64,000 nucleotides of DNA from Nitrospinota bacterium (GTDB lineage: Bacteria; Nitrospinota_A; UBA7883; JACRGQ01), in the NCBI GenBank assembly GCA_016200345.1, contig JACQEX010000030.1, forward strand, positions 6,242 through 70,241, written 5' to 3'. The number at the start of each line of letters is the position of its first letter. Within the stretch, counting starts at the first letter, position 1. This document shows, piece by piece, positions 30,351 to 45,277 of this stretch. Position numbers and translations under genes: made by a program. The notes beneath the pieces were generated by a model. It made no database searches. It was given only the letters and a program-made list of their open reading frames with translations, and was not told the origin of the DNA.

Positions 30351-30890
30351 TTAGTACGGCTCCAATAAATCCGATTCAAGCTCCGTGACCAAAGCCCTTT
30401 TAAATAAATCCAATGAGACGATAAACCGCCCCGTCTTGGGGCTTATGCGAACAAATTGCCCGTACGCACCGGCCAGCGGCCCCGCCACAACGTGCACGCG
30501 CTCCCCCGCGACCATCGGGGTGTACGGCAGTTCGTAAACGGGCGCCGGGGAACAGGCCATCTTTTCCAGGCGCAACACCTGGTCGTTTGGGATGACGGCA
30601 GGACTGCCGTCTTGACGGACAAACCCCAAAACGCCTTTGTGAGAAAACAGCATCTTGGTTTCTACGGCCTCGATGTCGGCTTCAACAAACACGTAGTTGC
30701 TCAACAGCGGTTTTATTACGGCAACCTTCTGTCCGTTCCTTCTTTTCCACACGTCCCTTGCCGGAACGCTGACTTTTAAGCCGAAATGATTTTTGAAAAA
30801 TTCCGAGACGCTAAATTCATTTTGATGCCTAACCCTGAGCGCAAACCACCCGCAATCAACGGTGTAGGGCGAAACCAGCGCATTGCTCAT
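30351..30890 (-). CDS. NusG-family paralog (RfaH/UpxY/LoaP-like operon-specific antiterminator)
   Basis: 179 aa. NGN domain (WFALRVRHQNE...) and a C-terminal KOW (GERVHVVAGPLAGAYGQF). Shorter than housekeeping NusG and sits at the 5' end of the polysaccharide operon. Confidence 0.75.
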   Translation of the reverse strand: MSNALVSPYTVDCGWFALRVRHQNEFSVSEFFKNHFGLKVSVPARDVWKRRNGQKVAVIKPLLSNYVFVEADIEAVETKMLFSHKGVLGFVRQDGSPAVIPNDQVLRLEKMACSPAPVYELPYTPMVAGERVHVVAGPLAGAYGQFVRISPKTGRFIVSLDLFKRALVTELESDLLEPY

Positions 30891-32141: not shown

Positions 32142-34886
32142 TCAGGGCGCGACTAATTCCACAAAGGCAATTCTGCCTGGGGAATTTTTTAAAATCTTGA
32201 TTTTCCCCACGAAGGCCATATGCTCTATCCAACTGCTAAACCGCATCAATTTTTTATGCAACGACCCGTTGGGATCCTTCTCGAGAGTCCCCGTATTCAC
32301 GTCAATGATGATGTATCGAAAACCGGCGGACTTTAAAATACGGTATATCTCCTCGTCGCTTTCCCCGGCGCTCATGCAACTAAAATTGTCCAGCATCTGG
32401 TCGTCATAGAGACGTCTGTCGTTTTTGACGATAAAATAGCTTATAAAGGTGCCGATTCTATACACGTAGTTTTTCTCGGTCAGGGTTTCCGGGTGGTCGT
32501 TGACCTCCTTTGCTATGGACGAATAATCAGGCGCGAGGTTTTCGATGGTTTTGGCCTCGTCAAAGAGGCCGAATGCAAAGCCCGTCATGGACTTGTTGCC
32601 AAAGGTCTGGTTGCGAAAGGCCACAAAGGTTGTTAGCGACACAAAAATCAACACCCAGCTCACGAAGCGCACCGGGGCGGGGCTGTTTGCAATCAAGTAA
32701 TCCATAATCAGGGCAAACAGCAAAAAGCCGCCGATTCCGTACCATATTATGCCGTCCGAAACCAGCATCCAAAAAACCCACGACGCGGAGCCTAAAAAGA
32801 CGGCCAGGGACAAGAGGGGGTTGCGAATTTTAACCGAGGCGTACCAATAGACGGCAAGCAACATCGCGACCATCACCCCAATTTCCGCGGCAAACCCGGG
32901 GGAAAGGCTTATGGAGTTCAAATTGCCAAAAGGGTTTAACTTTATTCGCAAGGCCCAGAATATCCAAAATGAAAACCATACGAACACCGTCGCCCCAGCG
33001 GCGATGGTCTCGCCGCGAAACCAGATTGCCATCGCCTCTTTTTGCCGTTCGATCCACACCACCGGCCCAGCGGCGATGGTCCCGCCGCGAAACCAGATTG
33101 CCAGCCCTATCAACGCCGGCAGAATGGCAAGAAAAGTGTAGCCAATGTCTACCCAAAAACCGTGGGTGGTCGTGTTCATCGTGTCTTTCCAAGGCAAAGC
33201 GATTAATTTGTCCAGCCCCGAATCGTATCCCGCATACCTACCCGCCTCCTCCTTCAAGCCGGTCGGACTGACGCATTCCTCCGCCGTTTTGCCCGATGTG
33301 TGCAAATCCGGGCTTAAAGAATTGGCGTTTGCCCCCTTCAACATGGCACTCAAATGAAAGTTTTTTGCCTGAAACCCATTGGAAACGGCCCAAGGCGCAA
33401 AGGTCAGGGCGGACAGGCCGACAAAAATCCCAAAACGCAGGCCAAATTCCAAAACCCTGGACTTGGCGCGCGCCATGGCAACAGCCCCGATGACGACGGC
33501 TAACAGGGCGCAGTAGCGGGAAAGCGTCGCGATTTGCGCATCGTCCAAAATGCCGTCCAGCCGAAGGGTGCCGCTTTTCAAGGTGACAAAAATGAACGCC
33601 AGAAAAAACGCCGCGGCTCCGGTGCGTCCAAGGTAAATTCCGGCAATGGCGACAGCCATGGGAAAAATTAAAAACGTGGCGGAAAATTTTATTCCAAAGG
33701 AGAAACCGGCAAACAGAGAGGCCAAAACGAGCCATTCAAGCTCGATCTTTTTCGCCCTGGTCGCCTCAACGTCGGGGGTCGCCCCGACCAAAGGCGCTTC
33801 TTTTGAAACCCTTTCGCGCCATTCAAAAAAGCAATAGACTGAAAGGGCCAGAAAAAAGAGCAACGTCGGGTCGGTCTTCATGTCGGTGGCCGACTGCCAC
33901 ATAAGCATCGGGGTCAGGTAGAGCACCGTGGCCGCGGTAATTCCCACCTTGTCAGAGAAAAAGCGACGGCCGATCGCCACGATGGCCAAAACGGCGCATA
34001 CGCCGCCGAAGTACGAGAGATACAGCGCGATGGTCGCGTTGTCGAAAAGCAGAAAACCAAGCGAAATGATGGGGAAATAGTTAAAGCTCCTTCCCCCGCT
34101 CAGAAGAAAATGGTATTGCGAAATAAGCTTGGGAATATTTATGTACACACCCATGTCGTCCCATCCCAGCGGTATCGGGCGAATCAGGTCGAAGAAATTC
34201 AGCGCAAAGACGAAAGTAAGGAACAAGAACAGGTATTTGCGCGGGGAAAACACCCTACTTCTAATTTGAATTTTATGGGAGACAAGCCGGCCCCACCAGG
34301 CGAAGGCCGTTCTCCACCGCCAGACCAAGACCGCGATGACGGCGAACCACACCACCGGGGTGTAAAGCAGTTGCGCGTGGCCGACCACGAACATCCCGGC
34401 TACGGTCGTCATCATCCCGGTTCCAATCGAAAACAGCGAGTCTTCCAACATGGCGTCGAAAGCGAGCTTTCCAAGCACGGCCTTTCCCTGCACGTAGAAG
34501 AAGGTTGCGAAAAACAGCAGGCCGAGGGTCATGGCGGTAAACCAAAACATCACGTTTAATTCCGCGGTAAAGACGTCCACCTTGTCCGCGAGGCCGCTTT
34601 TAGCGAGATAATACGAGGAAATCCACACCACGAGCGCCCCGAAAAAAACCAACACCCAAAGCGGCGTGACGTTAAACTTCCACTCGTCCTTGTCGCGATA
34701 GAAATACTGAACCAAATCAAGGGCAAAAAACAGCCCGACGCACATCGCCAGCATGCTCGTCGTCGGCTTAAACTCCTTCAGATTTGCCATGTGCTCCGGA
34801 TGGGAGATGAAATACTGCTGTATGACGTAGCCGGCCCAACTAAGGGCCAACAGGGAAAAAATTACCGAGAAAATCTTTCTTTGCAT
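32142..34886 (-). CDS. Large polytopic membrane protein, GT-C-like glycosyltransferase fold (tentative)
   Basis: 914 aa, more than 20 predicted TM segments, large loop regions. Contains an internal 24-aa tandem duplication. Confidence 0.55.
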   Translation of the reverse strand: MQRKIFSVIFSLLALSWAGYVIQQYFISHPEHMANLKEFKPTTSMLAMCVGLFFALDLVQYFYRDKDEWKFNVTPLWVLVFFGALVVWISSYYLAKSGLADKVDVFTAELNVMFWFTAMTLGLLFFATFFYVQGKAVLGKLAFDAMLEDSLFSIGTGMMTTVAGMFVVGHAQLLYTPVVWFAVIAVLVWRWRTAFAWWGRLVSHKIQIRSRVFSPRKYLFLFLTFVFALNFFDLIRPIPLGWDDMGVYINIPKLISQYHFLLSGGRSFNYFPIISLGFLLFDNATIALYLSYFGGVCAVLAIVAIGRRFFSDKVGITAATVLYLTPMLMWQSATDMKTDPTLLFFLALSVYCFFEWRERVSKEAPLVGATPDVEATRAKKIELEWLVLASLFAGFSFGIKFSATFLIFPMAVAIAGIYLGRTGAAAFFLAFIFVTLKSGTLRLDGILDDAQIATLSRYCALLAVVIGAVAMARAKSRVLEFGLRFGIFVGLSALTFAPWAVSNGFQAKNFHLSAMLKGANANSLSPDLHTSGKTAEECVSPTGLKEEAGRYAGYDSGLDKLIALPWKDTMNTTTHGFWVDIGYTFLAILPALIGLAIWFRGGTIAAGPVVWIERQKEAMAIWFRGETIAAGATVFVWFSFWIFWALRIKLNPFGNLNSISLSPGFAAEIGVMVAMLLAVYWYASVKIRNPLLSLAVFLGSASWVFWMLVSDGIIWYGIGGFLLFALIMDYLIANSPAPVRFVSWVLIFVSLTTFVAFRNQTFGNKSMTGFAFGLFDEAKTIENLAPDYSSIAKEVNDHPETLTEKNYVYRIGTFISYFIVKNDRRLYDDQMLDNFSCMSAGESDEEIYRILKSAGFRYIIIDVNTGTLEKDPNGSLHKKLMRFSSWIEHMAFVGKIKILKNSPGRIAFVELVAP

Positions 34887-34996: not shown

Positions 34997-35024
34997 CAGA
35001 GAAGACGTGACCGATAGCCAGCCG

Positions 35025-35438
35025 ATGGCGGCTTTTAGGCTCCACATCGCCAAAAAGGGGCTTCGCCACACCAAGCAGAGAGAGGAAATCCTTTCAGCCC
35101 TTTTCTCGTCCAAAAAACACGTCACGGCGGAGGAGCTTTTCGATATCCTCAGGTCAAAGGTGGCCGGCATCGGCTATGCCACGGTGCAAAGAAACCTGAA
35201 CCTTTTGCGGGAGTGCGGACTGGCCGAGGAGGTAAAAATTGGCAACCAAAAGGCCCGCTACGAGCCGAAACGCGGTAAGGAACACCACGACCACCTCATA
35301 TGCCTTAAGTGCGGAAGGTTCATAGAGGTAAACGACCCGAGGCTGGAAAAACTACAGGACGGGCTGGCGAAGGCAAACGGCTTTGCGCCGCTAAGACACA
35401 AACTGGAAATATACGGAACCTGCGCCAAGTGCGCATAA
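35025..35438 (+). CDS. Fur-family transcriptional regulator (Fur/Zur/PerR)
   Basis: HTKQREEIL...HHDHLICLKCGRFIEV...CAKC: DNA-binding helix, metal-site HHxH and two CxxC pairs. Alternative GTG start at 35007. Confidence 0.8.
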   Translation: MAAFRLHIAKKGLRHTKQREEILSALFSSKKHVTAEELFDILRSKVAGIGYATVQRNLNLLRECGLAEEVKIGNQKARYEPKRGKEHHDHLICLKCGRFIEVNDPRLEKLQDGLAKANGFAPLRHKLEIYGTCAKCA

Positions 35439-35445
35439 AAGAGGG

Positions 35446-36537
35446 GTGGGAATGAGTTATTCGAATCTGCTGTTACTGGGCGCAATCGCCGGCTTTACAA
35501 TTTTCCTCGGCCTTCCCGTGGCGATGCTGACGACACGCCCGAAATTCCGCGCGTTCATGACCGCCCTTTCCGCAGGCGTTCTCATTTTCCTGCTGGTCGA
35601 GATATCCAACAAGTCGTTCGAGATTGTCGAGGAGGCGGTGAAAAGTTATTTTGTCGGCCAGTCCGGCCCGGCGCCAACCGCGCTTTGCCTTATTTTCTTC
35701 CTTGGGTTCACCGCCGGAATGTTCGGTCTGACCTTCTTTGAGGAAAAATTTGTCGGAACCGCCAAGGACTCCCCGGAAAAAAACAGCTCCAAATCCCTGT
35801 CAATGATGATAGCCATCGGCATAGGCCTGCACAATTTCGGCGAAGGACTTGCCATCGGCCAGGAATACGTCAGCGGCGCGATATCCCTCGCATACCTCCT
35901 TATAGCTGGCTTTGCGCTCCATAACGCGACCGAGGGATTCGGCATCGCGGCGCCGCTAAGGATGGAAAAGGTGGATTGGAAATTTTTGGGCCTTGCCGGC
36001 CTTGTTGGCGGCGGCCCGACGTTCGTTGGCGTTCTGGTCGGCTCCGTTTACTACTCGCGCCAGTTGGAACTGCTGGCTCTTTCCCTCGCCGCCGGTAGCA
36101 TCCTTTACGTGGTCGGGGAGCTGTTGCACCTCGGAAAAGTGCACGGACACCATAGAACGGTCATGGTCGGACTCCTGACCGGATTTTTCATCTCGTTTGC
36201 CTCCGACGCGTTCATAGAGGTCGGCACGGCGGTCACCGCCAATAAAAAGGTTCCGTCAAAGATTTATCAAGTCGAGGCCTCTGAATTCAAATTCACCCCT
36301 TCGCATTTTGAGGCGGTCCAGGGGGAGACTCTGCGGTTTGAGATTACTAACAAGGGGACGGAGAACCACGAGTTTGAAATGCCGGATTTAAAAACGGAGG
36401 TCGTGCTCACTCCGGGCGCCAACGCCGTCGTTACCGTGCCCGACCTGAAAGTTGGCGAGTACCTTATTAGGTGCGACCTGCCCGGACACCTTGAGCACGG
36501 GATGAAGGGCGAGTTGGTGGTCAAACCTAAAATTTAA
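35446..36537 (+). CDS. ZIP-family metal permease fused to a C-terminal cupredoxin-like domain
   Basis: ZIP signature helices (GLHNFGEGLAIG, HNATEGF) over residues 1-250. The C-terminal ~100 aa (TPSHFEAV...YLIRCDLPGHLEHGM) show a cupredoxin Cys-His...His-Met-like pattern. Confidence 0.65.
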   Translation: MGMSYSNLLLLGAIAGFTIFLGLPVAMLTTRPKFRAFMTALSAGVLIFLLVEISNKSFEIVEEAVKSYFVGQSGPAPTALCLIFFLGFTAGMFGLTFFEEKFVGTAKDSPEKNSSKSLSMMIAIGIGLHNFGEGLAIGQEYVSGAISLAYLLIAGFALHNATEGFGIAAPLRMEKVDWKFLGLAGLVGGGPTFVGVLVGSVYYSRQLELLALSLAAGSILYVVGELLHLGKVHGHHRTVMVGLLTGFFISFASDAFIEVGTAVTANKKVPSKIYQVEASEFKFTPSHFEAVQGETLRFEITNKGTENHEFEMPDLKTEVVLTPGANAVVTVPDLKVGEYLIRCDLPGHLEHGMKGELVVKPKI

Positions 36538-38815: not shown

Positions 38816-38958
38816 CCGCCTTCGCGCAAACCGTGGCGTTCTTAAATGTTTCGTGTTAGTATCTAGAAAATTTTTGGGCGGATTGTTTTTGACATACAAC
38901 GGCCCCGGACACGACTAAAAAACGCGAATTATAATCAATTATAGGACGGCGATTGCTT

Positions 38959-39651
38959 ATGAAACTTTCGGTGATTGTTCCCTGTTACAACGAAAACAAC
39001 ACCATAGAATCCATAATAGCGGCTATCAAATCGTCCCCCTACCCAAACAAGGAAATTATTATCGTTGACGATTGCTCCAAAGACGGGACAAGGGACAAAC
39101 TTAGGAACGGCATCGAAAAAACCGTGGACAAGGTGATCTACCATGAAATTAACATGGGCAAAGGGGCGGCCTTAAGAACGGGCATTATGGCCGCGACGGG
39201 GGACATCGTGATAATACAGGACGCGGATCTTGAGTACGACCCCAACGAGTATGAACGGGTTGTCGAGCCGATAGTAAAAGGGAAGGCCGACGTGGTTTAC
39301 GGCTCCCGCTTTTTGGGCGGCGACGCCCACCGGGTGGTTTATTTCTGGCACAGGATTGGAAACGGCCTGCTGACCCTTCTTTCAAACATGTTTACAAACC
39401 TGACGCTGACCGACATGGAAACTTGCTACAAGGCCTTCAGACGCGAGGTGATACAGTCAATAAAGATTGAGGAAAATCGCTTCGGTTTCGAGCCTGAAAT
39501 AACGGCAAAAATAGCCAGAAAAAATCTGAGAATTTACGAAGTGGGCATTTCCTATTATGGCCGAACCTACGAAGAGGGAAAGAAAATCGGGTGGAAGGAC
39601 GGCGTCTCGGCCCTGCGATGCATTATCGTCTACAACCTCTGGAGGAGGTAA
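38959..39651 (+). CDS. Family-2 glycosyltransferase (polyprenol-phosphate glycosyltransferase-like)
   Basis: [20 protein letters not shown] motifs of GT2/DPM1-like enzymes. Confidence 0.8.
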
Positions 39652-39667
39652 AATCAAGACCGACGCG

Positions 39668-39910
39668 GTTGTTAGTGTGGCGTCCCAGTATCGGGTTTGC
39701 AATTTGGTGGTAGCGGCGGGCTTTTTTCGGCAACCTCCATCGGGTAGCGGTGATGCACGCTCTGACTTGGGTGGCGGAAGTATTATGGTCGCATACTGCG
39801 GCCTGCCTTGCGCCCTGCGGGCGCAACAACAGGATGAATCCCGTTGCTACCAATTCGTGTTGGTGCAAGCACCGCTTGTGAAGGAGGTACTGGGACACTA
39901 CATTAGCAAC
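39668..39910 (+). repeat. Structured repeat element copy A (~243 bp; terminal inverted repeats; MITE-like or ncRNA)
   Basis: Shares a ~110-nt identical core with copy B at 42882..43117. Termini GTTGTTAGTGTGGCGTCCCAGTA / TACTGGGACACTACATTAGCAAC form an imperfect inverted repeat with G-U-compatible substitutions. Confidence 0.6.
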
Positions 39911-39914
39911 CTTT

Positions 39915-40493
39915 TTGAAAAAGCGTGCCTTCGTGGATGAACCAGTTTTAGAGCCCATTTTGCGCGGTATGCGCCTAAGAAAGGTGTTGCCCACCATTCG
40001 ACTTTACAATGAATGCACCCTGTTGGACATAGGGTGCGGATGGGAGTGCCGCCTGCTCAAGGCGGTGGAGCCGCACATTAAATCCGGCGTCGGGATTGAC
40101 TTCAAGGTGCCCCCCTCGGAAACGGACAAAATCAAAACCCATAATTTAAGGCTCGATTCCAATCTACCGTTCCCGGACGAATCGTTTGACGTCGTCACAA
40201 TGGTCGCCGTCCTCGAACATCTTGCCAAGCCGGCGCAAATGATTGGCGAGATCGAGAGGGTTCTTAAAAAAGGCGGGAGGCTTGTCATCACCGTGCCCAG
40301 CAAGGCGGCAAAACCGGTGCTGGAATTTCTGGCGTACCGTCTTAAAATCATCAACGCCGACGAGATTCGGGACTACAAGCAATATTACGGAAAAAAGGAA
40401 TTGGCCGACCTTTTTAAAAACACAAAACTTGTCGTGGAGCGCCACAGATATTTCCAATTTGGTTTCAATAATTTGTTGGTGGCAAAAAAATGA
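39915..40493 (+). CDS. Class I SAM-dependent methyltransferase
   Basis: LDIGCGWE motif I and Methyltransf_11-like spacing (VVTMVAVLEHL...LKKGGRLVIT). Confidence 0.65.
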   Translation: MKKRAFVDEPVLEPILRGMRLRKVLPTIRLYNECTLLDIGCGWECRLLKAVEPHIKSGVGIDFKVPPSETDKIKTHNLRLDSNLPFPDESFDVVTMVAVLEHLAKPAQMIGEIERVLKKGGRLVITVPSKAAKPVLEFLAYRLKIINADEIRDYKQYYGKKELADLFKNTKLVVERHRYFQFGFNNLLVAKK

Positions 40494-40526
40494 ACCCCGA
40501 TAATTTCCGATTGTAGCGGCAAAATA

Positions 40527-42407
40527 ATGCTGTTGCAGACTTTTGTGATCCACCCGGCCTTGTCGGGCCCGACTGCGCTCCTGCTGATTTTAGGAATAAT
40601 ATTTGTCGCTGGCGCCGTTTTAAGACGAACAGGCGGGGAGACGCCCGGAAACCTAGAGCTTTTTTGCGCCTCTGCGATACTTATTGGTTTGATTTCGGCG
40701 CCGGTATACATCATGTCCAATCTGAACATCTCCGTCGTTGTTTATGCGCGAGTGATTGGATGGCTCATGGTCGGCGCGGGGATTTTTTCGGTTGTCCGAC
40801 GTCTGTCGGCCAAAGACGGCTTGCAAACCTCTCAACAACAATGCCGGGGGCTAGTGGAACGGGCGACTTCCGGCGCGGACGCCTTCCTTATATTCTTCGT
40901 TTTGCTCATGCTATTCGCCTGCTCCCTCGGCCCCCCCACAGACGCGGATTCGCTTGACTATCACATAGGCGGCCCCGCGCGCCTCCTTTCGGGCGAGTTG
41001 TCGTTTCCCAGAAGCGATTGGATGTTTTCACGCATATTGTTTCTTGGCGAAAGTTTCAACACCATCGGGCTCGCCGTGGGCGCGGACAATCTAAACGCCG
41101 TTTTACAGTTCTCGGCGCTCGCGTGGATGTGTTACCTGATGTATTCGCTTGTCTCGCCAAACGGGGCGGACAGGCCTATTTTGGCTTTGAAGCTTGCCGT
41201 GATGCCCTGCGCTCTTTTGGCGATTATCCCAAACCAGAAGCCGCAGTTTTCCGGGGCGGTGGCCGTAGTAAGCGCGGTAATTTTGGTCTGCACATCCAAA
41301 TCCAAAAGCACACGCACCTACTTTTTGGCGGTGGGCGCCATTTTTTACGCCCTCTCGATAAAATACACCTTTTACGTCACAGCCCTTGTTCCATGGTGCT
41401 ACATAGCCTATGACGCATATAAAGAAAAAAAAGTGGGGGTCTTCATTTTATCAAACGCATTTTTTTACATGGCGTTCCTTTTTCCTATTCATCTTATCAA
41501 CACGCTTGGTTACGGGAACCCGCTCACACCGCTGTTGGGGCGACTTTTCCATGAACCGGGAGGCAACGACTACCTTCACGATTGGAATCTTATCGCCTCG
41601 CATTTTTCAGAGGGGTTTGGCTTCCCGTTGGGATTGCTTCTCCCCTCCTCTCCAGGCCGCATAAGCACCGTTATCGGAATAGGCGTTTTTACATTTTGGT
41701 TTGTGGATTGGAAAAACGCCACAGCCAAAACCTTGCTGTCGGTGGCCATAGTAACGTTCGTTTTTACGGCGGCCCTTAGCCCGACCATAAGCAGGTCGTT
41801 TATGAATAGCTACTATCTAATGGTCGCGGCCGTCGCCATAGCGCCCAAGGAGAGAAAAGGATTCCGGCTTTTCAATATGGCCGGCACGGGCCAGCTTGCA
41901 TTATTGGCTCTTTCGGCGGGCATAGGCGGGTACATTCTTTTTCCGGGGGCGCTTTCTTGGGACTTGCGCGACAAGGTTCTAAGCCGCACCGCATACGGAT
42001 ACAACGAGGCCAAATATTTGGGGGGGCATTTGCCGGCGGACGCAGTGGTGATACAAACCTCGCGCGTCAACGCCTTCCTACAGCGCCCCTATTTTGGAAT
42101 GGACCATCTCTTTTTGATGAAATACCATCCGGACGAGTTTGACAAACGGATGGGGCAATTTTCGGGAAAGCGGTTTTTTTATGTGTCATCGTCCGAAATT
42201 ACCGCTAAAAATTTCCTTTATCCGACACTTAAGGAAAACGCCCCGTTCCTAGAGCCGCCGGAGTTGCCGGTAGGAACCCGAAACCCGTTCAATCGCGCAA
42301 CATACCGTCTGTACATTTATGAGTTGGATTATGACAGGCTCATGCGCCTCGACCTGGCAAACACCTACAAGGGGAGCCTCGGTTACTCTCAATCCGACTC
42401 CTTGTGA
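40527..42407 (+). CDS. Polytopic membrane protein, GT-C-like / O-antigen-polymerase-like (tentative)
   Basis: 626 aa, about 12 or more TM segments, DADSLDYH loop motif, large C-terminal soluble domain. Confidence 0.5.
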   Translation: MLLQTFVIHPALSGPTALLLILGIIFVAGAVLRRTGGETPGNLELFCASAILIGLISAPVYIMSNLNISVVVYARVIGWLMVGAGIFSVVRRLSAKDGLQTSQQQCRGLVERATSGADAFLIFFVLLMLFACSLGPPTDADSLDYHIGGPARLLSGELSFPRSDWMFSRILFLGESFNTIGLAVGADNLNAVLQFSALAWMCYLMYSLVSPNGADRPILALKLAVMPCALLAIIPNQKPQFSGAVAVVSAVILVCTSKSKSTRTYFLAVGAIFYALSIKYTFYVTALVPWCYIAYDAYKEKKVGVFILSNAFFYMAFLFPIHLINTLGYGNPLTPLLGRLFHEPGGNDYLHDWNLIASHFSEGFGFPLGLLLPSSPGRISTVIGIGVFTFWFVDWKNATAKTLLSVAIVTFVFTAALSPTISRSFMNSYYLMVAAVAIAPKERKGFRLFNMAGTGQLALLALSAGIGGYILFPGALSWDLRDKVLSRTAYGYNEAKYLGGHLPADAVVIQTSRVNAFLQRPYFGMDHLFLMKYHPDEFDKRMGQFSGKRFFYVSSSEITAKNFLYPTLKENAPFLEPPELPVGTRNPFNRATYRLYIYELDYDRLMRLDLANTYKGSLGYSQSDSL

Positions 42408-42410
42408 CGC

Positions 42411-42830
42411 ATGACCGACGTCTTCTCCCCCCAAAAAAGGTCGAGGGTGATGCAGGCCATCCGCTCCGCCGGCAACAAATCCACCGAATTGCGACTGATA
42501 AGAATATTCAAGGAACACTCCGTAAAAGGATGGCGAAGAAACATTAAAATTACCGGTAGCCCGGATTTTGTCTTCAAAAAATACAAAATCGCGGTTTTTT
42601 CCGACGGCTGTTTCTGGCACGGCCACAAATGCCGAAAACTATGGCCCCAAACAAACGCCGAATTCTGGCGCAATAAAATATCGCGAAACAAAAAAAGGGA
42701 CAAACTGGTAAACAAGGAGCTTAAGGCCAAAGGGTGGCGCGTCGTCCGTTTTTGGGAGTGTGAACTGGGCGCAAAATCCGTCCGCCCCCAAATAAGGCTT
42801 TTGCAAAACATGCTGTCCTGCGCCAAATAA
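42411..42830 (+). CDS. vsr: Very-short-patch-repair (Vsr)-like endonuclease
   Basis: DFVF...VFSDGCFWHGH...FWR Vsr signature. No adjacent Dcm-type methyltransferase. Confidence 0.75.
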   Translation: MTDVFSPQKRSRVMQAIRSAGNKSTELRLIRIFKEHSVKGWRRNIKITGSPDFVFKKYKIAVFSDGCFWHGHKCRKLWPQTNAEFWRNKISRNKKRDKLVNKELKAKGWRVVRFWECELGAKSVRPQIRLLQNMLSCAK

Positions 42831-42881
42831 CGAAACTTCATATTTCATCAACTTTCGTCCTCATAAATTTCCACCCTGTTT

Positions 42882-43117
42882 CTAGTGTAGTGTCCCAATA
42901 ACGGCTTTACAATTCGTTGGTAGCGGCGGGCTTTTTTCGGCAACCTCCATCGGGTAGCGGTGATGCACGCTCTGACTTGGGTGGCGGAAGTATTATGGTC
43001 GCATACTGCGGCCTGCCTTGCGCCCTTTAGGGCGCAACAACAGGATGAATCCCGTTGCCACCAATTTGTGTCGCCGCATATTCCGTCTGTAAAGGGGATA
43101 CCGGGACACTACACTAG
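42882..43117 (+). repeat. Structured repeat element copy B (~236 bp; perfect 15-bp terminal inverted repeats CTAGTGTAGTGTCCC)
   Basis: Same orientation as copy A. The internal hairpin loop differs (TTTA vs TGC) while the stem GCGCCC/GGGCGC is preserved. Confidence 0.6.
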
Positions 43118-43131
43118 GTGGTGATTAGAGT

Positions 43132-43159
43132 TTGACATTGTAAAAAGCTATTGTATAAT
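43132..43159 (+). promoter_or_regulatory. Near-consensus sigma70 promoter (TTGACA-N16-TATAAT) upstream of the TetR gene
   Basis: TTGACA at 43132..43137 and TATAAT at 43154..43159, followed by an AT-rich imperfect palindrome ATTACTTAG..ATGAGTGTAAT before the RBS GGAGG. Confidence 0.45.
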
Positions 43160-43224
43160 AACTATACATTAAATCGTTATTACTTAGTTTTAATGAGTGT
43201 AATATAACCATTGGAGGCGATAAA

Positions 43225-43965
43225 ATGAAAATATCCAAGGCACAAAAGGACAAAAATAGGCAAAAGCTTATTTCAGCCGCCGTGGACGTAATCACGGAAA
43301 AAGGGTTCCAGTCCGCCACCATGCGCGAAATCGCCAAAAAAGCCGGGCTTGCGGAGGCGACAATATATAAATATTTCCCGACCAAGGAAAAACTCGTTTA
43401 CGCCTATTACGAGCAAACCCAAACCGTGGCCGTCGAGAGAGCCGCAAAAGTTAAGGGGGTTGAAAAATTCACCCTTCGCGAACGATTCCAACTCTTGATT
43501 GACACGGGACTTGAGGCGTTCCTAAACGACCGCGAGTTTGTGCGCAAGACGTTCGGGGTGGCCTTCATATCCCCGGCCGGATATTTTGGCGGAACCTCCG
43601 AGGTAAAGAGATTGTTCGCCAACGCGGTTGCAGATTTGGTTGAATCCGCCGAAATACGGCGCGAAATACCGGAACAACCGTTCAAAGCGTTCGTTCCCGC
43701 CCTATCTTGGGATTACTATCTTGGCGTGGTCACATTTTGGTTAAAGGACGAATCCGAAAACTTTTCCGACACCACCTTGCTAGTCGAAAAAAGTCTGGCT
43801 GTCGTTGAGGCCGTGTTAAAAAGCGGAGTGCTCTCCACCGGGGCGGAATTCTTAAGCTTCCTATACAGGTCGCACGTGTCGCGCTGGCTGGACGTGGCTG
43901 GTAAAGCGTTTTGCCAGCCGGGAAAGAATGAAAAGAAAACGGGGCGCCGTCATGCAAAAAAATGA
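43225..43965 (+). CDS. TetR-family transcriptional regulator
   Basis: N-terminal HTH (ISAAVDVITEKGFQSATMREIAKKAGLAEATIYKYFPTKE). Confidence 0.8.
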   Translation: MKISKAQKDKNRQKLISAAVDVITEKGFQSATMREIAKKAGLAEATIYKYFPTKEKLVYAYYEQTQTVAVERAAKVKGVEKFTLRERFQLLIDTGLEAFLNDREFVRKTFGVAFISPAGYFGGTSEVKRLFANAVADLVESAEIRREIPEQPFKAFVPALSWDYYLGVVTFWLKDESENFSDTTLLVEKSLAVVEAVLKSGVLSTGAEFLSFLYRSHVSRWLDVAGKAFCQPGKNEKKTGRRHAKK

Positions 43966-45277
43966 AGCCCCCGTCCCGTCCGGAAAACTTGCGCGCGGGA
44001 AAACCGTCGGCATTGCCGTGGCCCGTGTCGGGGCGAAAAAACTCGCCCACGCCACCAAACGCGTTTTACTAGGCAAGGCGTCGCAAGAAAAAGCCGACGC
44101 ACGGTTTAACGAGGATTCCGCCAGGCTGATTTTCGAGGCGTTGGTTACGCTTCGCGGATCCGCGCTAAAGGTCGCCCAGCTTCTAAGCCTCGAAATGGAC
44201 CTTCTGCCCGAGCCGTATCAAAAGGAGCTGTCAAAATCGTGCTATCGCGTCCCGCCTCTCAACCGCGCGCTGGCCCGTAAAATGTTCATAGCCGGCCTTG
44301 GCAAATCGCCGGAGGATGTTTTCGCGGAGTTTGATTACGACGCATTCGCCGCCGCGTCCTTAGGCCAGGTTCATAAGGCTGTCCTGCGCGATGGCAGGCC
44401 CATTGCCGTAAAACTACAGTACCCCGGCATCCGCCAATCCTTAAGGAGCGATTTGGCAATCTTGCGGGGACTCGTCGCCGCCGTTCCACAAACACAAAAA
44501 GGCAAATTTGGCGCCGCGCTTGAGGAGATTGAAACCCGCCTTCTGGAAGAGGCCGATTATTTTATAGAGGCGGAAAATACGAAAATTTTTCACAAATTTC
44601 TAGCCTCTGCGTCCCCAAACATCACGACTCCAGAAACGCACCCGGATTTCTGCTCCGGCACCATTTTAACAACATCTCTCTTGCCCGGCGCGCATATGGA
44701 CGAATGGCTTGCGACAAAACCCGCACAAAAAGAACGCGACAAGGCGGCACAGGAGATTTTTGAAGCGAACATTGGATTATTTTACGAACTCAACACCATT
44801 CACGCCGATCCGAATCCCGGCAACTACCTTTTTGGCGACGGCGATAAGGTGGGCCTATTGGATTTTGGGTGCGTTAAGAAACTAACTCCCGGATTCGTCG
44901 GCCAATACAAACGCTTCTTGAGGGCCATTACTGGCGGAAGCAAAAAAGAGATCATTGAGTGTTGCCGCAACTTTGAACTGATTTCAAATAACAACGCTGG
45001 CGACGTGGAGACTCTTTACGAAAACCTTTTAAGGCCTTTTAACGAGTGGGTGGCATTGCCTTACAAAACCGACTTCTTCGATTTCAATAAAAACCCCGAT
45101 TACTGCTCGAAGGGGCGTGAATTTTACTCGGCGATAGCAAACCATAAAAGTAAAACCACCGAACTGAACCCAAATTTCATTTTTGTTGACAGGACTCGGT
45201 ACGGCCTTTATCGCATCTTCGAGAAACTTGGCGCAAGAGTCGCCTTTAAAAACAAGTGGGAATTCGAAAGGTTGTAG
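43952..45277 (+). CDS. ABC1/UbiB-family atypical protein kinase
   Basis: AAASLGQVHKA...IAVKLQYPG...HADPNPGN motifs. Start taken at the internal MQKNEAP. Confidence 0.75.
   Translation: MQKNEAPVPSGKLARGKTVGIAVARVGAKKLAHATKRVLLGKASQEKADARFNEDSARLIFEALVTLRGSALKVAQLLSLEMDLLPEPYQKELSKSCYRVPPLNRALARKMFIAGLGKSPEDVFAEFDYDAFAAASLGQVHKAVLRDGRPIAVKLQYPGIRQSLRSDLAILRGLVAAVPQTQKGKFGAALEEIETRLLEEADYFIEAENTKIFHKFLASASPNITTPETHPDFCSGTILTTSLLPGAHMDEWLATKPAQKERDKAAQEIFEANIGLFYELNTIHADPNPGNYLFGDGDKVGLLDFGCVKKLTPGFVGQYKRFLRAITGGSKKEIIECCRNFELISNNNAGDVETLYENLLRPFNEWVALPYKTDFFDFNKNPDYCSKGREFYSAIANHKSKTTELNPNFIFVDRTRYGLYRIFEKLGARVAFKNKWEFERL

Follow-up and report, generated by a model that had tools for sequence, protein, structure and literature searches.

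Two intergenic copies of a probable MITE in a glycan-related operon of an uncultured Nitrospinota bacterium

Results

Two copies of a non-coding repeat

Two closely similar sequences, designated here as copies A and B, were identified 3.2 kb apart in a 64-kb stretch of chromosome (referred to here as the window) from an uncultured Nitrospinota bacterium. We consider that they probably arose when a ~228-bp non-autonomous DNA transposon (MITE) inserted independently at two sites, a reading to which we assign a probability of about 0.6, and that this element probably constitutes a new MITE family.

Copies A and B were found in the same orientation and exhibited 88.5% identity over 235 nt in a pairwise comparison (Table 1). 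An initial sequence-only reading of this DNA had described two ~240-bp same-orientation repeats sharing a ~110-nt identical core; these repeats were shown to be real, the core representing an exact match of 109 nt, and a second exact block of 29 nt is also common to both copies. The bounds proposed for copy B were retained, whereas those proposed for copy A (39668..39910) were narrowed to 39672-39906. A 27-mer from the core occurred twice in the window, compared with zero occurrences expected by chance, and no third copy was detected in the window. At 227-228 nt, the element lies within the MITE size range of about 50-600 bp.

Differences between the copies were unevenly distributed, with 3 changes among 141 core positions (138 identical), compared with 23 among 87 positions of the arms (26%; Fisher p = 2.7e-8). 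All three core differences fall within one hairpin loop, which represents the sole variable site of the core. The combination of an invariant core and divergent arms is unusual for a neutral MITE.

Table 1. Coordinates of the repeat copies, their sub-elements and neighbouring genes within the window
Feature	Position	Strand	Remarks
Copy A with 4-bp flanking direct repeats	39672..39906	+	
Copy A, element proper	39676-39902		227 nt
Copy B with 4-bp flanks	42882..43117	+	
Copy B, element proper	42886-43113		228 nt
Core, exact match	A 39708..39816 = B 42918..43026	+ (both)	109 nt
Second exact block	A 39819-39847 = B 43030-43058		29 nt
A left flank TTAG	39672..39675		Putative target-site duplication, YTAR type; immediately 5' of TGTGGCGTCCC
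A right flank TTAG	39903..39906		Direct, not inverted, repeat of left TTAG
B left flank CTAG	42882..42885		
B right flank CTAG	43114..43117		
GGTTG	39667..39671		Complementary to CAACC at 39907-39911; beyond A/B homology
A left terminus TGTGGCGTCCC	39676..39686	+	
A right terminus GGGACACTACA	39892..39902	+	
B left terminus TGTAGTGTCCC	42886..42896	+	
B right terminus GGGACACTACA	43103..43113	+	
A hairpin TTGCGCCC-TGC-GGGCGCAA	39808..39826	+	Loop 39816-39818
B hairpin TTGCGCCC-TTTA-GGGCGCAA	43018..43037	+	Loop 43026-43029
A inner helix, 5' strand GGTAGCGGCGGG	39709..39720	+	Pairs with 39840-39851 (CCCGTTGCTACC)
A GGTAGCGG motifs	39743-39750 (second)		First lies inside inner helix 5' strand
GT2 glycosyltransferase gene	38953..39651	+	Upstream of A; stop codon 20 nt before A's TTAG
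Three genes between A and B	39915..42830	+	
SAM methyltransferase gene	39915-40493	+	
DUF1420 membrane protein gene	40527-42407	+	
Vsr endonuclease gene	42411-42830	+	
TetR promoter, TTGACA-16-TATAAT	43132..43159	+	Perfect sigma-70 consensus; starts 14 nt after B end
TetR gene	43225-43965	+	
NusG paralog gene	30351-30890	minus	Heads ~30-kb minus-strand glycan cluster

Inverted termini and internal structure

Terminal inverted repeats were found in both copies, as had been claimed. Those of copy B (CTAGTGTAGTGTCCC/GGGACACTACACTAG) are perfect over 15 bp and reach 30 nt at 83% identity, while those of copy A extend over 24 nt at 83%. The left terminus of copy A differs from the other three by two transitions, giving rise to one G-U pair and one C-A mismatch. 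The 11-nt terminus GGGACACTACA was observed three times in the window, exclusively at element ends, compared with 0.39 occurrences expected.

Internally, a GC hairpin with a conserved stem and a variable loop was recovered as originally described, its 8-bp stem being intact in both copies. The inner 12-bp helix of the same description was present in copy A, where it includes two G-U pairs, but its 3' strand in copy B (CCCGTTGCCACC) introduces an A-C mismatch on the + strand. The count of two GGTAGCGG motifs per copy was likewise reproduced; six such motifs occur in the window (1.6 expected), four of them within the elements, and each copy additionally contains one inverted variant.

Flanking sequences and target-site duplication

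Each copy is bordered by its own tetranucleotide in direct repeat (TTAG/TTAG for copy A and CTAG/CTAG for copy B), and matching 4-bp flanks, i.e. the kind of target-site duplication for which the sequence-only reading had proposed a search, were thus found on both copies. TTAG and CTAG are two of the four forms of 5'-YTAR-3', the motif of the 4-bp duplications made by IS5 (PMC5009759), and would fit an IS5-type target signature. At the extreme ends of copy A, G-U-compatible changes had previously been perceived; these positions were shown to be TTAG directly repeated on both sides, and as inverted-repeat bases they would need a left end of CTAA rather than TTAG. A single insertion event would explain both apparent changes. 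The GGTTG/CAACC pairs that had been added to the terminal helix of copy A are not part of the A/B homology. Before insertion, the target of copy A would have read GGTTG-TTAG-CAACC-TTTTT, a small palindrome, and the empty site between the GT2 and methyltransferase genes would read GGTTGTTAGCAACC.

CTAG is palindromic, so that in copy B a target-site duplication and a longer inverted repeat look alike, and the duplication argument therefore leans mainly on copy A. A third sequence, to which the assembly graph points (see below), also opens with CTAG, which appears to suit CTAG being part of the element slightly better. Furthermore, the 12 nt to the left of copies A and B are identical at 7 positions, and the left boundary or the target preference may accordingly be wider.

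Gene neighbourhood, coding capacity and database searches

Both copies are intergenic, in line with the sequence-only reading, but neither occupies the operon leader position that it had suggested: copy A is intercistronic, between the GT2 and methyltransferase genes, and copy B is located 3' of the Vsr gene and ahead of the TetR promoter. The GC content of the three-gene block between the copies equals that of its surroundings. No integrase or recombinase was found in or beside this block, and no transposase in the 64-kb window. The nearest homolog of the DUF1420 protein exhibited 35% identity and that of an ABC1 kinase 58%; the loci of these relatives are not syntenic and hold no copy of the element. 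DUF1420 homologs in other genomes occur within polysaccharide clusters.

The element has no coding capacity, all six frames being interrupted. Its concatenated six-frame translation, used as a protein query intended to detect other copies mis-annotated as ORFs, retrieved no homologs among 5.8 billion proteins. The patterns tried brought up no relatives in plasmids, phages, viral contigs, JGI metagenomes or GTDB species representatives. The two large DNA scans, which needed exact 20-23-mers, returned one chance match inside an ABC-ATPase gene (JGI) and three chance matches of 20-30 nt in unrelated taxa (GTDB), viral-contig scans returned nothing, and blastn against plasmids and phages yielded nothing or chance matches only, as was the case for the 39-nt left end against plasmids (chance matches only).

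Assembly-graph evidence for a further copy or junction

Logan contigs derive from de Bruijn graphs with k=31 (PMC12424806), and a model in which copies A and B are the only copies predicts contig stops at 39737, 39787, 42947 and 42997. Two contigs (L011 and L015) end at 39737, one of the predicted positions, which validates this reasoning on contig ends. Other ends deviate from the prediction: L001 and L002 stop too early, at 42911 (42882+29), L001 starts at 39838, and L007-L010 start at 43069, indicative of other sequences in those samples that share arm stretches of at least 30 nt. The stops at 42882+29 suggest that a further sequence matches copy B exactly from 42882 onwards. One arm-sharing sequence would consequently begin exactly at the first base of the element with a different left flank, which would imply at least one more copy or junction beyond A and B.

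RNA folding and covariation

The whole element yielded fold z-scores of -5 to -7 on both strands, attributable to its inverted-repeat arms; a signal of this kind, equally strong for either strand, is what inverted repeats produce. The inner 120 nt, with z-scores of -1.4 (+) and -1.5 (-), folded no better than shuffled sequence. A terminal helix forming only in a + strand transcript had been taken as a sign of functional RNA; the arms of copy A do pair better as + RNA (-35.8 compared with -27.4 kcal/mol as - RNA), but those of copy B show the opposite preference (-26.6 as + and -34.0 kcal/mol as -), and the strand argument cancels out. Summed arm pairing across copies (-58.8 kcal/mol) nearly equalled that within copies (-62.4 kcal/mol), indicating no copy-specific compensation, and the covariation measures, derived from two sequences, were not significant, as they were reached by 61 of 500 shuffles.

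A covariance-model search, the check proposed for the RNA interpretation, gave no Rfam family match: no match was obtained at gathering thresholds over the whole window (Rfam 15, whose families include EAR, JUMPstart-type and HEARO RNAs), and a permissive search (E<=10) of 39400-43400 returned noise only (E 2.7-9.4). No promoter or terminator was found inside the element. The claimed resemblance to the RfaH ops core was not upheld, since the 12-nt ops consensus GGCGGTAGnnTG has no match within one mismatch in copy A or B; four such matches occur elsewhere in the window, which is chance level. A NusG paralog is indeed encoded nearby, at a distance of 9 kb, but it is on the opposite (minus) strand and heads a separate cluster. 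Of the original proposal, a MITE or a leader ncRNA with a leaning towards RNA, the MITE half was sustained, whereas the RNA and antitermination half was not, on account of the folds, Rfam, ops and siting results.

Discussion

Proposed origin of the two copies

The element possesses conserved termini (5'-TGTAGTGTCCC...GGGACACTACA-3'), followed inwards by degenerate subterminal inverted repeats, and lacks a protein-coding gene. Its mobilisation in trans would depend on a DDE transposase, encoded at another site, that would recognise these termini and cleave a YTAG (YTAR) target with a 4-bp stagger; repair of this cut would double the tetranucleotide on both sides, yielding the flanks of copies A and B. 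As the flanks match within each copy, two separate insertions would account for the bracketing of the three genes, rather than their arrival as a composite unit. Both copies would have survived in the intergenic DNA of a + strand operon and, if transcribed, they would contribute their long terminal hairpin to the mRNA, whose processing might incidentally be affected. The repeats, their inverted termini, the direct 4-bp flanks, the lack of coding capacity and the assembly-graph signal of at least one more copy or junction are observed; mobility, transposase family and any effect on expression are inferred.

Comparison with known systems

The element resembles the IS5 family and its MITE derivatives in its 4-bp YTAR duplication (PMC5009759), short terminal inverted repeats and preference for non-coding DNA. 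It differs in lacking a transposase gene, and no parent element was identified. The termini (TGTAGTGTCCC) are presumably unlike the ends of Escherichia coli IS5, and the putative IS5-type assignment therefore derives entirely from the duplication motif.

IS630/Tc1-mariner elements duplicate TA, and CTAG is a favoured IS630 target. A TA duplication within an NTAG target is a possible reading here, giving C-TA-G for copy B and T-TA-G for copy A with ends GTGTAG...CTACAC, but it costs a mismatch at the outermost inverted-repeat pair of copy A, whereas the 4-bp reading costs none. Correia elements of Neisseria and ERIC/IRU elements of enterobacteria are transcribed, non-coding, intergenic MITE-like palindromes of 100-250 bp with terminal inverted repeats and a target duplication containing TA; they are found between operon genes, with which they are co-transcribed, their long hairpins may undergo RNase III cleavage or alter mRNA stability, and they reach tens to hundreds of copies per genome. 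The element described here is likewise small, non-coding and intergenic with terminal inverted repeats, and may be transcribed and processed; it shares no sequence similarity with them, and two copies were seen, with at least one more inferred. Its likeness to RfaH ops/JUMPstart and EAR elements is limited to a GGTAGCG heptamer and the glycan-gene neighbourhood, as opposed to the unmatched 12-nt ops consensus, the position of both copies outside leaders, the missing Rfam match and the location of the NusG paralog in a different, opposite-strand cluster.

Alternative explanations

The distribution of changes also accommodates, albeit with rather low probability, a scenario in which a MITE spread while its ~140-nt centre (39708-39847) is under selection, acting as an RNA module in the glycan-operon transcript or as a protein-bound DNA site (e.g. 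through the GGTAGCGG motifs). Confinement of all core changes to one loop beside an intact 8-bp stem is consistent with this, as are the two direct and one inverted motif per copy and the sense orientation of both copies relative to the + strand operon; moreover, one gene-conversion tract would not account for three clustered changes in the middle of the core. However, stems accumulate changes even in RNAs under strong constraint, and zero change outside the loop, compared with 26% in the arms, is more suggestive of a core that was recently homogenised or that descends from a recent common ancestor. Hairpin loops are mutation hot spots, orientation is uninformative for two copies, and the stability of the inner 120 nt does not exceed that of shuffled sequence for the + or the - strand, with no Rfam match above noise at E<=10 and no internal promoter or terminator. 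A cis-acting leader RNA appears very improbable. Its + strand transcript would form a long helix bearing an ops-like motif, and this motif would recruit the NusG paralog and so suppress termination in polysaccharide operons, a view for which the glycan-related surroundings (GT2 and DUF1420), the proximity of that paralog and the + strand pairing of the copy A arms could be cited. Conversely, the ops consensus is unmatched, copy A is intercistronic and copy B is situated at an operon 3' end upstream of the next promoter, the paralog heads its own 30-kb cluster on the opposite strand, and copy B favours the - strand in its arms and is mismatched on the + strand in its inner helix; significant covariation, an Rfam family (including JUMPstart and EAR types) and homologs in any other genome searched were all lacking.

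Local recombination is another unlikely source of the pair, in which insertion or exchange of the methyltransferase-DUF1420-Vsr block duplicated a palindromic module already present between genes; a chromosomal copy could have recombined with a copy on incoming DNA, a crossover in the identical core leaving direct repeats around the block. The repeats do exactly bracket this three-gene accessory block, whose DUF1420 protein has just a 35% identical closest homolog, a homologous crossover would be expected within the identical core, and the left flanks show weak similarity (7/12). Such a crossover would not, however, provide each copy with matching 4-bp flanks, a pre-existing repeat family would still be needed, the block lacks a recombinase and does not differ in GC content, and the assembly graph points to a further junction with another left flank at the exact end of the element. 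Several other candidates were rejected: a composite transposon or att-flanked island (the outer flanks, TTAG and CTAG, differ while each copy's own flanks match, and there is no integrase), integron attC or att sites (no integrase, and repeats that are too long), a DGR TR/VR pair (no reverse transcriptase, and an identical core), an independent sRNA gene (no promoter or terminator within the element) and a 6-bp NCTAGN duplication of IS481 type (the 5- and 6-nt flanks mismatch).

Implications

If the element is a plain MITE, its value is chiefly for annotation, as a new repeat family in the poorly sampled phylum Nitrospinota, and it would explain short-read assembly breaks at these two points. 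The methyltransferase-DUF1420-Vsr block would then lie between direct repeats prone to recombination, through which this glycan-modifying block could be deleted or swapped between strains. New insight into regulation would follow only if the invariant core is functional, in which case a MITE would be carrying a regulatory function to wherever the element lands within a deep-branching lineage of Nitrospinota.

Two copies of an inverted-repeat element

A ~235-nt sequence was found twice in the window, with both copies (A and B) in the same orientation and sharing 88.5% identity across 235 nt (blastn); no third copy was detected elsewhere in the 64-kb window by blastn. A 27-mer from the core, the ~140-nt centre of the element, occurs twice in the window, compared with zero expected occurrences. 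Only a hairpin loop intervenes between the two exactly shared stretches, the hairpin being TTGCGCCC-(TGC in A, TTTA in B)-GGGCGCAA. The terminal inverted repeat of copy B (CTAGTGTAGTGTCCC / GGGACACTACACTAG) is perfect over 15 bp and extends to 30 nt at 83%, while that of copy A spans 24 nt at 83%. Also confirmed were the inner helix (GGTAGCGGCGGG/CCCGTTGCTACC) and the pair of GGTAGCGG motifs in each copy, so that the repeat architecture described in the sequence-only reading is real and far above chance.

Features of the element and its surroundings (window positions)
Feature	Position	Strand	Remark
NusG-headed cluster	1-31981	minus	NeuB, UDP-GlcNAc 2-epimerase, DegT aminotransferase, cytidylyltransferases, split transketolase, RmlD
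NusG paralogue	30351-30890	minus	
914-aa ORF	32142-34886	minus	between NusG-headed cluster and Fur; no Pfam match at E≤1e-5
Fur, ZIP/cupredoxin, CcmH	35007-36537	+	ZIP metal-transporter domain fused to C-terminal cupredoxin domain; CcmH-like protein
Zinc-ribbon protein, B12-radical SAM enzyme		+	follow CcmH
GT2	38953-39651	+	last gene upstream of A
Copy A with flanks	39672-39906		TTAG direct repeat, 39672-75 and 39903-06
Exact shared stretch 1	39708-39816 = 42918-43026		109 nt
Exact shared stretch 2	39819-39847 = 43030-43058		29 nt
SAM methyltransferase	39915-40493	+	between A and B
DUF1420	40527-42407	+	between A and B
Vsr	42411-42830	+	between A and B
Copy B with flanks	42882-43117		CTAG direct repeat, 42882-85 and 43114-17
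Sigma-70 consensus promoter, TetR gene	43132-43159	+	TTGACA, 16-nt spacer, TATAAT; 12/12 matches; AT-rich stretch
TetR	43225-43965	+	first gene after B
ABC1 kinase, APH, NAD kinase, GGDEF, RecN		+	follow TetR, in this order

Putative insertion sites

The element is bounded by TGTAGTGTCCC...GGGACACTACA, the terminus read inward being TGTAGTGTCCC at both ends of copy B and at the right end of copy A, and TGTGGCGTCCC at the left end of A. The tetranucleotide just outside the termini behaves as a target-site duplication, since it is directly repeated and differs between the copies; were these four bases part of the inverted repeat, the left end of A would read CTAA rather than the actual TTAG. Both TTAG and CTAG match 5'-YTAR-3', the documented 4-bp duplication motif of IS5 (PMC5009759). 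The corresponding pre-insertion sites would read ...GGTTGTTAGCAACC... and ...CTGTTTCTAGGTGGTG.... Alternatively, the sites may be read as a TA duplication within an NTAG target, the pattern of IS630-like elements, at the cost of one more mismatch in copy A.

The terminal helix of A had been proposed to persist through G-U-compatible changes. These were mostly accounted for by the direct TTAG/TTAG pair. Of the two transitions at the left end of A, one produces a G-U pair on the + strand and the other a C-A mismatch, the 50:50 outcome expected for neutral transitions. The GGTTG/CAACC pairing around A lies outside the A/B homology; the insertion target of A was accordingly a small palindrome (GGTTG-TTAG-CAACC-TTTTT). 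Flanks match within each copy but not between the outer ends of the pair, which identifies A and B as independent insertions rather than as the two ends of a composite element. Over the 12 nt that precede each insertion on its left (39660-39671 vs 42870-42881), 7/12 positions are identical (CCGACGCGGTTG vs TCCACCCTGTTT), while the flanks on the right show no relationship; the left-hand similarity could be due to chance, to a target preference that reaches beyond the tetranucleotide or to an element boundary lying slightly further left.

Within the window, CTAG is ~8-fold rarer than expected (30 observed vs ~247 from base composition) and TTAG and CTAA are each ~2-fold rarer, so that YTAG, the apparent target, would be a rare site here. 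The gene adjoining copy B encodes a stand-alone Vsr (very-short-patch repair endonuclease), without a neighbouring Dcm-type cytosine methyltransferase. CTAG scarcity in E. coli is ascribed to VSP repair.

Genomic context

Two of the proteins encoded between the copies, DUF1420 and Vsr, have identical counterparts in MBI3793740.1 and MBI3793741.1, which derive from a 75-kb contig of a 'MAG: Nitrospinae bacterium'. DUF1420 homologues in other genomes are sited within polysaccharide clusters, making 'glycan genes' a fair label for the surroundings. Neither copy occupies a leader position: 20 nt separate the GT2 stop codon from A, 51 nt separate the Vsr stop codon from B, and 14 nt lie between the end of B and the TetR promoter. 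The NusG paralogue was confirmed to be encoded nearby, but it heads its own ~30-kb minus-strand nonulosonic-acid/radical-SAM glycan cluster and has no linkage to the + strand operon in which the copies lie. Radical-SAM enzymes number at least seven in this cluster (four B12-binding, three SPASM), an unusually high count for a locus of sugar modification. The TetR (TetR_C_23) and ABC1/UbiB-kinase genes overlap (43225-45277), and this two-gene module is kept at 54-58% identity in distant, non-syntenic genomes (homologue loci L012, 9286-11326, and L014, 9235-11335), one of which is a MAG labelled Bacteroidia.

Searches for further copies

When JGI metagenomes and GTDB species representatives were scanned for exact patterns, the matches were due to chance only; no relative of the element was found among viral contigs, plasmids and phages, and a search of 5.8 billion proteins with its six-frame translation yielded no called ORF. 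The 64-kb window itself encodes no transposase. The protein collection contained no close relatives of the lineage (nearest DUF1420 homologue, 35% identity; nearest ABC1 kinase, 58%), and the loci of these nearest homologues are non-syntenic and lack the element.

The source organism is also present in Logan assemblies of five runs (SRR12113409-13), in which contigs L001, L007, L011 and L015 represent the same locus with scattered SNPs (e.g. 39930, 39956, 43182 and 47179), indicating that several strains coexist in the samples. Each 31-mer is unique in Logan contigs, which are built as de Bruijn contigs at k=31 (PMC12424806), and a contig passing from unique sequence into a repeat halts 30 nt inside the exactly shared stretch. 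With A and B alone, stops are predicted at 39737, 39787, 42947 and 42997; L011 and L015 end at 39737, validating this logic. Other contigs depart from the two-copy prediction, with L001 and L002 ending at 42911 (42882+29), L001 starting at 39838 and L007-L010 starting at 43069. Other sequences in the samples therefore share at least 30 nt with the left arm of B, the right arm of A and the right arm of B (arms being the inverted-repeat parts outside the core), and one of them sets in precisely at nucleotide 42882, where B starts, its left flank being different. At least one further copy is indicated by these stops; alternatively, they could derive from a strain in which a B-like copy adjoins other sequence on its left. 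Under either reading, the element boundary is independently placed where the inverted repeat ends.

RNA function and uneven divergence

A leader or antitermination RNA, towards which the sequence-only reading had leaned, failed all tests run. Rfam returned no match at gathering thresholds and noise only at E≤10. Full elements fold well relative to shuffles on the + strand (z=-6.0 and -5.7) and the - strand (z=-5.0 and -7.3), and also as DNA; such a both-strand signal is what inverted repeats give, and the inner 120 nt without arms were unremarkable (z=-1.4 on +, -1.5 on -). Pairing favouring a + strand transcript was observed for the arms of A (-35.8 vs -27.4 kcal/mol on -), whereas those of B favour the - strand (-26.6 kcal/mol on + vs -34.0) and its inner helix has an A-C mismatch on +. 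Arm pairing showed no copy-specific compensation, with sums across copies (-58.8) nearly equal to those within copies (-62.4). The reported stem-preserving covariation is not significant: in the two-sequence alignment, from which the structure was itself derived, 61/78 predicted pairs lack any variation and 61/500 shuffles reached the covariation measures. Likewise, the suggested resemblance to the RfaH ops core was not upheld, as neither copy matches the ops consensus within one mismatch. A leader or antitermination role is therefore highly improbable.

Divergence between the copies is uneven: 3/141 positions differ in the core, all within the hairpin loop, compared with 23/87 in the arms (Fisher p=2.7e-8), and the 11-nt termini are conserved again (2/22, both at the left end of A). 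Even divergence would be expected of a neutral pair of MITE copies. It is from this pattern, left over by the MITE reading, that a mobile carrier of a functional ~140-nt module may be proposed, which we consider unlikely. Selection on the core is one possible cause, as are subfamilies that share a young core but differ in their arms; recent gene conversion between the copies, 3.2 kb apart, is also possible but fits poorly with the mid-core cluster of loop changes.

Overall, the element most likely represents a new MITE family, of low copy number, from a MAG of Nitrospinota (probability of roughly 0.6). Two insertions into YTAG sites within an operon for glycan modification would have taken place, and RNA-level effects, if any, would follow incidentally from the long hairpin formed by the element's termini.
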